A stretch of 64,000 bases of DNA from a plasmid, in NCBI RefSeq assembly GCF_988243305.1, contig NZ_OZ547137.1, one strand, 5' to 3'. Below, piece by piece: positions 22,601 to 25,600 of the stretch (its first letter is position 1; each line of letters starts with the position of its first letter). The position numbers are program-made.

Positions 22601-25600
22601 AACACAATCGAGAAGGACTTATCAAAGAGATGGACTCTAGCTATTATTGCAGATGAATTTAATGTATCAGAGATAACAATAAGGAAAAGGCTTGAGTCAG
22701 AGTATATTACTTTTAACCAGATCCTTATGCAATCAAGAATGAGCAAAGCAGCATTGCTGTTGCTTGATAACTCATATCAGATATCACAGATATCTAATAT
22801 GATAGGATTTTCCAGTACATCATATTTCATTAGACTTTTTGTAAAACATTTTGGCATAACACCAAAACAATTCTTGACTTATTTTAAAAGCCAATGAAAA
22901 TATGTTTTATATCATTATTTGAGATTGCTATAAACATATTGGTGATGCCTCTAATTAGTTGAATCTGATGTATAATACGGGCTTTTGAGGTTATCTCATG
23001 TCCAGCGTTAATATTCATTGTCCCCGTTGTCAGTCAGCTCAGGTTTACCGCCATGGTCAGACCCCTAAAGGCCGTGACAGATTTCGCTACCGTGACTGCC
23101 ACCGTGTGTTTCAGCTCACTTATACTTATCAAGCACGTAAGCCGGGTATGAAAGAGCTGATAACTGAAATGGCCTTTAATGAGCCAGGAATGATGCTGGC
23201 CCGGATGGCTCGTTTACATGGAATTCAGCCCTGCCAGTTGTTTAAGTGGAAGAAACAATACCTGGAAGGAACTCTCAATGCTGTTGCTGCTGGTGAAGAC
23301 GTTGTTCCTGCTTCTGAACTGGCCGCTGCGATAAAGCAGATTAATCAGGTTCAGCGTTTACTGGGCAAGAATCTATGGTCCCCACCATTTTTGCAACACT
23401 GATTTTGATTGATGTTGGCTTGCCTAAATCTATCCGGCGTCATTATGGGCATGGATGCCCGCGCCTCGATGAGTTCCACACCTGATGAGCCCAAAAAACC
23501 ATCCGGCTTCAGTGAGCCATTTTCTTGCTGAGGCTTTTCATCAGGCCGATATGCCGTTCATGTCATCAATAATCAGTCTTCGCAAAACCAGATTGGGAAC
23601 TACTTTAATTCATGATTAACCTGCCAGCCAGACTGGCGCCATCGTTACCTTTCGAACACAGTCTGCTGTGTTGTGATTGCCCACGCTATCCGGGCTAATT
23701 TGTTGGCCAGTGCGCAACATACTACGCTGGAGTGTTTTCTTGCCAACAACGCCCTGACCCAATCCGCCAACCTTCCTGACTGATTCTCGATTCTCTGAAT
23801 AAAGGATCTTGCGCACTGAACGAGTAACCGTCGCAGATTTTTATCTCCACGTTTACTTATCCCTAAAAGGGTATTTTTACCACCTGTGCTGTACTGCCGG
23901 GGTACCAGACCGGTTGAAGCAGCAAAGTCCCGACTGCAGCTATATTGTTTACCGTCTCCCAGCTGCGATGACAGTACGCTGGCGGTTATCGGACCAATAC
24001 CGGGTATTGTCTGAAGACGTTGTCCTACCTCATCACGACTCAGTTCCTGCTCCAGTGCGATTTCAAGCTCGGTGATCTGTCCGACAAGGTAAATATAATG
24101 GGCATGTAAGCGCATCAGTAACTGCGCCAGATAGGGAGGAAGTTCGTTCTCTGCAAGTACTGTTGAAAGTCGTTTTACCACTGCGACTCCTGTCGGCATA
24201 CTGATGCCAAATTCCAGCAAAAAAGCATGCATCTGATTGGTCGTTTTGACTTTATCACTGACCAATGATTCCCTGACCCGGTGAAGCGCCCGCATGGCCT
24301 GCTGAGCTTCTGTTCGTGGTTGCACAAATCGCATGGAGGGACGAGATGCCGCTTCGCATATGGCTTCTGCATCGACAAAATCGTTCTTGTTGCTCTTAAC
24401 AAAAGGGCGAACGAACTGCGGAGAAATCAATTTTGCTTCATGACCTAAATCAGCAATCCGGCGAGCCATAAAATGAGCTCCGGCGCAGGCTTCCATCACA
24501 ACGGTAGACGAGGCACAGCCTGCCAGAAACTCAATAAGTTTGGTACGGGTAAACTTTTACGCAGCAATACCTTGCCTGACTTATCTTGGCAGTGAATGTG
24601 AAAGGAATGCTTGCCAAGATCTATACCAATAAGCGTAATGTTTTGCATGATGGTCTTCTCCATGAAAGAAAAACACTCTACTAGGGTACAGCTCACAGGG
24701 TGGTGGGGACCATCTCATTAACCATGGAAGTTGAGATCCTCAGGGAAGCAGTGGAGTATGCGCAATCGCAAATGGATAATGTATGTGTCCTTGTTATCTT
24801 CGGACAAGGAATAGCCTCGGTAAGCCGTGTTTTGGGCGATCGAGCAGGAGGCGGGATCATTCCCGCCGTCCTGAGCCTGTTTGTGCACAGAAAACCCCCA
24901 GCTAGGCTGGGGGTTCCGGAAAGCTTTCAGCTTTGAGGCCAGTTATTAAAACCCCTTTTGATTTGTTAAAACACCTTGCGGTCTGGCAACTGCAAGTGTC
25001 AAACAAGAAATCAAAAGGGGGTCCCAATGGGGAACGAAAAGAGCTTAGCGCACACACGATGGAACTGTAAATATCACATAGTTTTTGCGCCAAAATACCG
25101 AAGACAAGTGTTCTACAGAGAGAAGCGTAGAGCAACAGGCAGTATTTTGAGAAAGCTGTGTGAGTGGAAAAGTGTACAGATTCTGGAAGCTGAATACTGT
25201 GCAGATCATATCCATAACAACATTTACCATCATCGCGGATATGGCCAAAAAAGTGGCTGAAGATGATGCAGAAGTCTCATCCATAACCAAGCCGGGTGCA
25301 GAAATTCATGAGTCTTAGCCCACCTCTGGTGATATTAAACGTGCGCAGGGGGCATAACTGATTCTCGCCAATGGTATGAATCTGGAATTATGGTTCCAGC
25401 GCTTTTGCCAGCATCTCAATGAGGTTCCAGAGGTGATTGTCTCTTCGGGTGTGACACTGGTAGGGCTCACCAAAGGGCCCTATGAGGGCAAACCTACCCC
25501 CCAATGCCTGGATGTCGCCAGATAACGCTCTGATTTACATTGTTAATATTCGTGATGCTTTAATAAAATACGATCCGGAAAATGAACTGCCCGGGAATCC

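Follow-up and report, generated by a model that had tools for sequence, protein, structure and literature searches.

The window analysed here is a 64,000-nucleotide (nt) stretch of a plasmid (contig NZ_OZ547137.1 of assembly GCF_988243305.1). It contains an IS1111-type insertion sequence (IS) lodged in an IS2-type orfA gene, and the subject of this report is that element and the RNA that may direct its insertion. Read directly, the element occupies 23372-24719 with its transposase on the minus strand. In transposase orientation the locus reads ttccatggtt / AATGAG-ATGGTCCCCACCA ... transposase ... 273-nt non-coding region ... TGGTGGGGACCAT-AGA / ttcttgcccag (features are collected in Table 1). 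The 13-bp inverted repeats at 23375-23387 and 24701-24713, correctly recognised in the original prediction, are subterminal: they start 7 nt from the left end (6 nt by the boundary drawn in that prediction) and 3 nt from the right end. Members of the IS1111 group have subterminal inverted repeats of 7-17 bp and short terminal extensions, and the window element has both. It also has the IS1111-type layout that had been proposed for it, with 273 nt of non-coding DNA downstream of the transposase (23372-23644) compared with 71 nt upstream. The last ~215 nt of the downstream region form the conserved RNA scaffold described below. The inverted repeats have no further exact copies within the window, and no second copy of the element and no other target site was found there. 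A third repeat-like match at 4362-4374 was dismissed as a chance resemblance, the end motif being absent around it.

The rejoined flanks of the element encode a peptide resembling IS2 TnpA/orfA (NF006928, E = 5.9e-34; PF01527, HTH_Tnp_1). Three uninterrupted homologues, one of which adjoins aggR in the orthologous plasmid CP056609.1 (L091), read GGGCAAGAAAACCATGG at the empty site. The target has therefore not been duplicated, and the original prediction was right both on this point and in stating that the element splits an IS2-group orfA. The 15 copies of this IS that we sampled all lie at one site, CCATGGT/T(T)TCTT(G/A)CCCAG, in the same orientation and on five flank haplotypes, so that the insertion core is indeed common to other copies; the target sequence can be written as ATGGTTTTCTTGC. 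The flanks of L001-type copies have diverged from those of the window far more than the IS copies themselves, indicating at least two independent insertion events. One copy (L087, NZ_CP049202.1) has the usual right flank and a left flank that is unrelated except for its last 7 nt (catggtt); either recombination between two insertions or a second target sharing the left half-site may account for it.

The junctions differ between lineages in their number of T residues: 2+2 in the window lineage, 2+3 in the four other flank haplotypes and T4 in the empty sites. A 2+3 arrangement is what a T4 target plus the element's own T would give. The right junction of the window lineage is shorter by one T (23370-23372 and 24719-24722, compared with L001, L085-L088 and L097), owing either to slippage when the element inserted or to a homopolymer deletion afterwards. 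Across the clade the ends read TAATGAG-ATGGTC... at the left and ...GACCAT-AGA at the right, and IS4321-like elements occupying Tn21 inverted repeats are surrounded by 3+2 T. We therefore count the T at 24720 as part of the element. The boundaries first assigned, 23372-24719, are a valid description of the window copy and omit only this shared T, which the family comparison adds. Intact copies (L001, L087, L088) are 1350 bp long. The 3+2 arrangement agrees with the end extensions of 7 nt and 3 nt that are reportedly present in IS4321/IS5075, in an account attributed to Partridge and Hall in 2003. It also agrees with the 7-nt left extension of ISEc11 (PMC11187229).

An intact copy on plasmid pCFSAN004179G (L001), 99.5% identical in DNA to the window element, encodes a protein of 334 amino acids. 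This protein matches PF01548 (DEDD_Tnp_IS110; 73.6 bits), PF02371 (Transposase_20; 82.3 bits) and the NCBIfam model NF033542, 'IS110 family RNA-guided transposase' (343.9 bits; cut-off, 140). Its residues 247-256, GLVPRQYSTG, constitute the IS1111-type C-terminal motif, GL-P----(S/T)G, which is typical of IS1111 transposases (PMC11187229). Protein identity is ~80% to annotated ISSfl8, 73% to IS4321, 72% to IS1328, 39% to IS1111A and 35% to ISEc11. On these comparisons the window element is assigned to the IS1111 group of the IS110 family and, within it, to the IS4321/IS1328/ISSfl8 clade, a group listed in the supplement of PMC11187229. Identification as ISEc11 was rejected: that element is 1443 bp long, its target is GTGAAAATACTG and its protein is only 35% identical (PMC11187229). 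DNA 98-100% identical to the window element recurs on F-type plasmids of E. coli and E. albertii, and matches of at least 99% identity are found in 48 PLSDB records and in 78 records of complete E. coli genomes.

The window copy carries the 1-nt frameshift that had been noticed in an A-run of its transposase. Relative to intact copies one nucleotide is deleted at codons 31-32, leaving A4 in place of the A5 of L001, L087 and L088, each of which gives a 334-amino-acid protein. The A4 allele is common to at least four independently deposited plasmids and is thus a mutation of the lineage, not an error in a single assembly. To judge from its reading frame, the window copy cannot make full-length transposase or, its transposase being frameshifted, move by itself. 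In the RNA region a single base, outside the guides, distinguishes it from an intact copy. The A-run is polymorphic across L001 and L085-L090, the homopolymer having been altered twice, in opposite directions.

The original prediction named the non-coding region as a bridge or seek RNA guide candidate on account of two short matches to the insertion site, CCATTTTCTTGC at 23517-23528 and AAAACCAT at 23495-23502. Both matches are real and lie where they were placed. In the transposase sense GCAAGAAAA (23528-23520) precedes AUGGUUUU (23502-23495); both overlap on the target TTTT and are unpaired in the consensus fold. The U at 23519, beside GCAAGAAAA, could form a wobble pair with the G preceding TTTTCTTGC, and the U-run of the second guide extends to 23493. 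The matches concern opposite strands, which had been named as the expectation for left and right target guides, and their arrangement agrees with that published for IS1111 seekRNAs, in which the top-strand match comes first in the 5' to 3' direction, the bottom-strand match follows and both cover a common part of the target (PMC11187229). We assessed chance matching with 20,000 dinucleotide-preserving shuffles of the 273-nt region. Sense matches spanning the junction over 8 nt or more arose in 2.5% of them, antisense ones over 9 nt or more in 1.9% and both kinds together in 0.045%; the earlier estimate of 0.03-0.1 per match was slightly conservative. In two E. albertii plasmids (L085, L086) the mutated bottom-strand guide reads AUGUUUUU, a mismatch to the target ATGGTTTT, and the transposase is frameshifted, which suggests decay after insertion.

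The strongest evidence comes from relatives. We fetched 80 loci with transposases at 68-93% amino acid identity, from Xenorhabdus, Photorhabdus, Serratia, Yersinia, Burkholderiales and others, and aligned 47 distinct non-coding regions (the window element and 46 relatives). The ~215-nt scaffold has a mean column identity of 80%. It is broken by two hypervariable patches, which flank a conserved hairpin, GGCUCACUGAAGCC, and coincide exactly with the two reported matches. In a fixed-register test on 45 distinct insertions with 26 guide types, the 3' patch agreed with the last 5 nt of its own left flank at 4.73 of 5 positions, compared with 1.51 of 5 in cross-pairings. The reverse complement of the 5' patch agreed with its own right flank, over the 5 nt past the T-run, at 3.65 of 5 positions (cross-pairings, 1.61 of 5). 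None of 20,000 permutations reached either score. In some relatives the guide register is shifted by one position, inside the T-run. Relatives at other targets have different sequences at the same loop positions, and these match their own flanks: the loop segments of IS4321-like loci agree with the Tn21 inverted repeat, and the ISSfl8 guides GGGGAUUU and AGAUgAAAU correspond to the target GGGGA/TTTGATCT in a DUF4942 gene (the guide pair is also written as GGGGAUUUU and CAGAUGAAAU and the target site as GGGGATTTGATCT; the scaffold is 85-87% identical). The pattern of guide-to-flank covariation across the family is unambiguous, and the guide candidate is borne out by loop guides that follow their flanks across 26 guide types.

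The same alignment supports a structured RNA on the minus strand of 23372-23644, as had been suggested, with covarying stems and far lower values in both slid and shuffled controls. In the consensus fold a basal stem surrounds a multiloop that holds a target-binding stem-loop and a second hairpin. RNAalifold (47 sequences) gives the target-binding stem-loop an outer stem, GCCUGAUGA/UCAUCAGGU, and a short stem, CCU/GGG; compensatory changes are seen at 5 of the 8 outer-stem pairs. The two guides form the sides of the internal loop between covarying stems (5' side, 23520-23530; 3' side, 23493-23503), so the matching segments fall outside the stems. The basal stem was first seen in per-sequence duplex predictions; 90.5% of its cells are paired, compared with 36-49% when the partners are slid, and 8 pairs have changed on both sides (for example, AU in 19 sequences and GC in 13). 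RNAalifold also offers a helix UGAUGA/UCAUCG, which we did not adopt as the main model because its competitor, an extended basal stem, covaries on both sides in the neighbouring segments. In the core helices 98.1% of cells are paired (32-43% with slid partners) and 75 cells are double-sided compensatory changes (4-14 when slid); none of 500 shuffles reached these values. Compensatory double changes are present in five helices. Approximately 120 cells are G-U pairs, one of them invariant, and as these would become A-C mismatches on the opposite strand, the strand that folds is the transposase-sense one. The capping hairpin (23504-23519) together with the U-rich guide (23493-23503) scores as resembling an intrinsic terminator; such sites are no commoner than chance, and we discarded the hairpin-plus-U-run 'terminator' matches, which correspond to the guide loop. 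We likewise set aside an internal promoter for the RNA, since the one weak sigma-70-like site (23746-23719) is within chance expectation.

Table 1. Features of the IS1111-type element and its insertion site, in window coordinates.
Feature	Position	Strand	Basis or remark
Whole IS1111-type element	23372..24720	-	1349 bp by family convention; left TAATGAG..., right ...CCATAGA
Left-end 7-nt extension TAATGAG	24714..24720	-	direct reading and relatives
Left subterminal inverted repeat ATGGTCCCCACCA	24701..24713	-	direct reading and relatives
Right subterminal inverted repeat TGGTGGGGACCAT	23375..23387	-	direct reading and relatives
Right-end 3-nt extension AGA	23372..23374	-	direct reading and relatives
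Transposase pseudogene, DEDD/RuvC-like and Transposase_20 domains	23645..24648	-	longest reading frame of the element; intact homologue
Frameshifted A-run	24555..24558 (plus-strand TTTT)	-	A4 in the window (CGTAAAAGTTT), A5 in intact copies, A6 in E. albertii
3' non-coding region, 273 nt	23372..23644	-	transposase stop at 23645-23647
Basal stem, 5' strand (UUUUGCGA AG ACUGAU U AUUGAUG ...)	23557..23587	-	pairing counts
Basal stem, 3' strand	23389..23419	-	includes invariant TTGCAA, 23391-23396
Target-binding stem-loop, equivalent of a short seekRNA	23480..23546	-	outer stems, CCU/GGG, internal loop, capping hairpin
Top-strand guide GCAAGAAAA	23520..23528	-	5' side of internal loop; complementary to target TTTTCTTGC
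Capping hairpin UGGCUCACUGAAGCCG between the guides	23504..23519	-	GC to AU at one pair in 5 sequences
Bottom-strand guide AUGGUUUU	23495..23502	-	3' side of internal loop; identical to target top strand ATGGTTTT
Candidate right-donor guide CUCAU, complementary to left-end ATGAG	23469..23473	-	conserved; putative
Second hairpin GGCGCGGGCAUCCAUGCCCAUAAUGACGCC	23436..23465	-	apical pair CG in 22, GC in 12, UA in 4, AU in 2
Candidate left-donor guide AUAGAU, right-end ATAGA plus shared T	23428..23433	-	putative
IS2-type orfA, upstream half, ends ...CTGGGCAAGAA	23193..23371	+	in transposase orientation, right target half TTCTTGCCCAG
IS2-type orfA, downstream half, (A)ACCATGGAAGTTGAG...	24721..24780	+	in transposase orientation, left target half ...CCATGGT

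The donor side is less clear-cut. A second loop matching the circle junction had been anticipated; short invariant segments, AUAGAU and CUCAU, do flank a covarying hairpin, but nothing in them covaries with the ends of the element. The second hairpin is flanked 5' by GGAACUCAUCGA, which holds CUCAU, and 3' by the near-invariant CCGGAUAGAUUUAGGCAAGCC, which holds AUAGAU and whose core, GAUAGA, is identical in 47 of the 47 aligned sequences. Both segments lie within one nt of the register that the target guides have beside their own hairpin, and they are plausible candidates for donor recognition. When the ends are joined in silico, TTGCAA (23391-23396) is followed by a 17-nt spacer and GA/TAAT, the TAAT of the -10 element coming from the left-end extension. 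By analogy with Pjunc of ISEc11 (PMC11187229), the joined ends would form a good sigma-70 junction promoter, and TTGCAAAA may be invariant on account of this promoter, not of RNA pairing.

Taken together, the target of the window element is very probably chosen by a guide RNA encoded in its own 3' non-coding region. What was observed is the anatomy of the element, the covariation within the structure and between guides and flanks, the common insertion site and the frameshift; we infer from the sequence that in this IS the RNA is transcribed, processed and bound by the transposase. Precedents exist in the same group. Siddiquee et al. (2024) demonstrated seekRNAs for ISEc11, ISKpn4, ISPst6 and ISPa11; RNA from the downstream non-coding region co-purifies with an IS1111 transposase, is needed for both circle formation and insertion, and can be reprogrammed, naturally and by experiment (PMC11187229). 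For 93% of IS1111 elements, Durrant et al. (2024) predicted a bridge RNA encoded in the right end (PMC11208160). In IS621, too, the literature shows an RNA that is transcribed, bound by the transposase and needed for excision and insertion.

The mechanism we propose is as follows. The joined ends of the circular IS would create the promoter TTGCAA-N17-GATAAT, which would drive both the transposase and the RNA. The transposase-sense RNA of ~215 nt would form a multiloop closed by a long basal stem. In the guide loop, the 5' side, GCAAGAAAA(U), would pair with the target top strand, (G)TTTTCTTGC, and the 3' side, AUGGUUUU(UU), with the bottom strand opposite ATGGTTTT. The two guide duplexes would overlap on the T4 run and together specify ATGG-TTTT-CTTGC in the IS2-type orfA. 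The second hairpin (23465-23436), with CUCAU and AUAGAU, would probably hold the donor in the manner of a bridge-RNA donor-binding loop. The circle, with its junction ...CCATAGA/TAATGAG..., would then recombine at ...CCATGGT/TTTCTTGC... without duplication. The only base that donor and target would share at the crossover is a T, and we infer a single-T crossover core.

Several observations weigh against this mechanism, some concerning the target and others the donor. The T/A run is common to the clade and makes up 4 of the 8-9 matched bases of each guide, so that the information specific to an element is only ~5 nt per side. The family members share descent, and the permutation counts therefore overstate their independence; independent insertions of the window IS itself may number only two or three. 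Folded singly, the sequence is no better than its shuffles (z = -1.5), and single-sequence folding of both strands (z-scores of -1.5 and -2.3) was uninformative. The A-run of one guide can pair with the U-run of the other, a consequence of the guides' overlap on the target, and the guide loop may be partly closed in the free RNA, as in the minimum free energy fold. Rfam 15 has no model for such an RNA, and a scan of 22900-25200 against it, with E values up to 10, matched no bridge or seek RNA family. On the donor side, relatives with the left end TAATGGG, TAATGTG or TAATGAT have an unchanged CUCAU, and RNAalifold pairs the CUCAU segment with UGAUGA (23567-23562).

The alternative that survives best, and a distinct possibility, is that the RNA is a seekRNA in the narrow sense, guiding the target only, while the protein recognises the ends through the subterminal repeats and AUAGAU and CUCAU are incidental or structural. 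An 82-nt seekRNA holding the target matches sufficed for movement of ISEc11, the mode of end binding being stated as unknown (PMC11187229), and such a division of labour would fit both the lack of covariation between CUCAU and the left-end variants and the intramolecular pairing of CUCAU. It would leave unexplained why AUAGAU equals the terminus plus the shared T within one nt of the register of the bottom-strand guide, and why the segment around it is the most conserved part of the RNA; moreover, many IS1111 elements have donor-complementary bases in the multiloop (PMC11208160).

That the 3' block acts only as DNA, for transposase binding, end recognition and as the -35 element of the junction promoter, is very unlikely. 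There is little or no variation, and no covariation, in TTGCAAAA, the subterminal repeat and CCGGATAGATTTAGGCAAGCC, TTGCAA-N17-GA/TAAT is plausible as a junction promoter, and invariant pairs do not by themselves indicate RNA pairing. A DNA-only role is difficult to reconcile, however, with compensatory double changes in five helices, with strand-specific G-U pairs that would be A-C mismatches in the opposite sense, with variable patches that behave as guides, and with the finding that the homologous region of ISEc11 is essential as an RNA supplied in trans (PMC11187229). Hardly credible is the idea that the matches are coincidental, the non-coding region being conserved for other reasons and the transposase protein reading the target directly: each match alone has a chance probability of ~0.02, a homopolymer run is half of each and the single-sequence fold is unremarkable, but together they have a probability of 0.00045, these two loop positions follow the flanks across 26 guide types (0 of 20,000 permutations), and relatives with near-identical scaffolds and ~80-93% identical proteins have unrelated targets.

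If the guide RNA is accepted, the observations can be joined further, into a two-substrate bridge RNA in the IS4321/ISSfl8 clade combined with a single-T crossover, slippage in the T-run and action of the RNA in trans; we regard this combination as tentative and rather improbable as a whole. The donor guides CUCAU and AUAGAU would then flank the second hairpin in the multiloop in nearly the register of the target guides, and the crossover at a single shared T would fall inside the T-run that both target guides overlap. With the two strands measured from opposite sides of a homopolymer, the run length could slip, giving junctions that differ by one T, and the 2+2 and 2+3 haplotypes would be outcomes of such slippage. 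Frameshifted copies such as that in the window would still supply a functional guide RNA in trans.

The mechanism itself was published in 2024; the window IS, its target and the clade-wide table of guides and targets are new instances of it. The window contributes one naturally reprogrammed IS1111 guide RNA with a defined 13-nt target in IS2-type elements, an IS parasitising another IS on virulence plasmids of enteroaggregative E. coli. Many of its copies are decaying, as seen in the frameshifted transposase and, in one lineage, the guide mutation. The 26 guide/target pairs on a near-constant scaffold make a compact natural data set that shows the programmable loop positions and the place of the crossover, and may help the engineering of seekRNA or bridge recombinases.

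The surroundings of the element are a dense patchwork of IS fragments. An open reading frame at 22064-22897 (plus strand) encodes AggR, the virulence regulator of enteroaggregative E. coli, so the window derives from a pAA-type plasmid; the IS2 orfA remnant beside aggR is also present in CP056609.1, where it lacks the IS1111-type element. The interrupted reading frame (22998-23371, plus strand) is chimeric, with the N-terminus of IS1 InsA (Zn_ribbon_InsA and a partial HTH_Tnp_IS1) fused in frame to the C-terminal part of IS2 TnpA/orfA, which shows layered IS-into-IS rearrangements. The only significant Rfam match nearby is a full-length STnc490 at 24893-25017 (plus strand; 140.5 bits, E = 5.8e-30). 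It is followed by a truncated IS200/IS605-type Y1 transposase reading frame (24976-25260), and the two are an IS200 remnant directly beside the interrupted IS2 orfA. A further IS3-family orfA-like reading frame lies ~1 kb downstream (25686-25961, plus strand).

Approximately 200 E. coli records, mostly chromosomes, have a megablast match only to the 3' ~230 bp of an ISSfl8-like element, at 84-87% identity; this portion comprises the guide-RNA region and the right end. The two such loci that we inspected both lie inside a DUF4942 gene beside cbtA-type toxin genes, one (L002, NZ_CP063332.1) being a truncated remnant and the other (L003) a full ISSfl8. The truncated loci are orphan guide-RNA regions without a transposase.

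Among known elements, the closest is ISSfl8, of which the annotated copy in E. coli HB37 (NZ_CP053080.1, the L003 locus) has a transposase ~80% identical to that of the window element. The two share non-coding DNA at 85-87% identity, ends of the form TAATGAx-ATGGTC ... GACCAT-AGA and the same RNA scaffold. They differ in their guides, which are CAGAUGAAAU and GGGGAUUUU in ISSfl8, and in their targets, that of ISSfl8 being GGGGA/TTTGATCT in a DUF4942 gene near cbtA-type toxin genes. ISfinder separates ISs at 95% DNA or 98% amino acid identity, and by this cut-off the window element would be an IS separate from ISSfl8. IS4321/IS5075 share with it the scaffold, the end extensions and the habit of inserting into another mobile element, and the IS4321 transposase is 73% identical; their target and guides are different, and they are widespread on resistance plasmids (thousands of records), whereas the window IS is mostly confined to F-type plasmids of E. 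coli and E. albertii.

ISEc11, its RNA compared by description, resembles the window element in having a downstream non-coding region, in guide order and overlap and in the lack of target duplication. A promoter forms at its circle junction, and its relatives are naturally reprogrammed (PMC11187229). It differs in its transposase (35% identical), its length (1443 bp, compared with 1350 bp) and its target, GTGAAAATACTG. In IS621 the bridge RNA likewise accompanies a DEDD recombinase and has internal-loop guides for both target strands, with a second RNA region for the donor, and the circular donor recombines with the target (PMC11208160). The order of the strand matches is reversed relative to IS1111 (PMC11187229), and the subterminal inverted repeats of the IS110 group are only 2-3 bp (PMC11208160), compared with 13 bp in the window element. 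Unlike the RNA of the window element, that of IS621 comes from the left end, upstream of the gene. The core of IS621 is the dinucleotide CT, whereas only a single T is demonstrably shared between donor and target in the window element, whose candidate donor bases lie in the multiloop.

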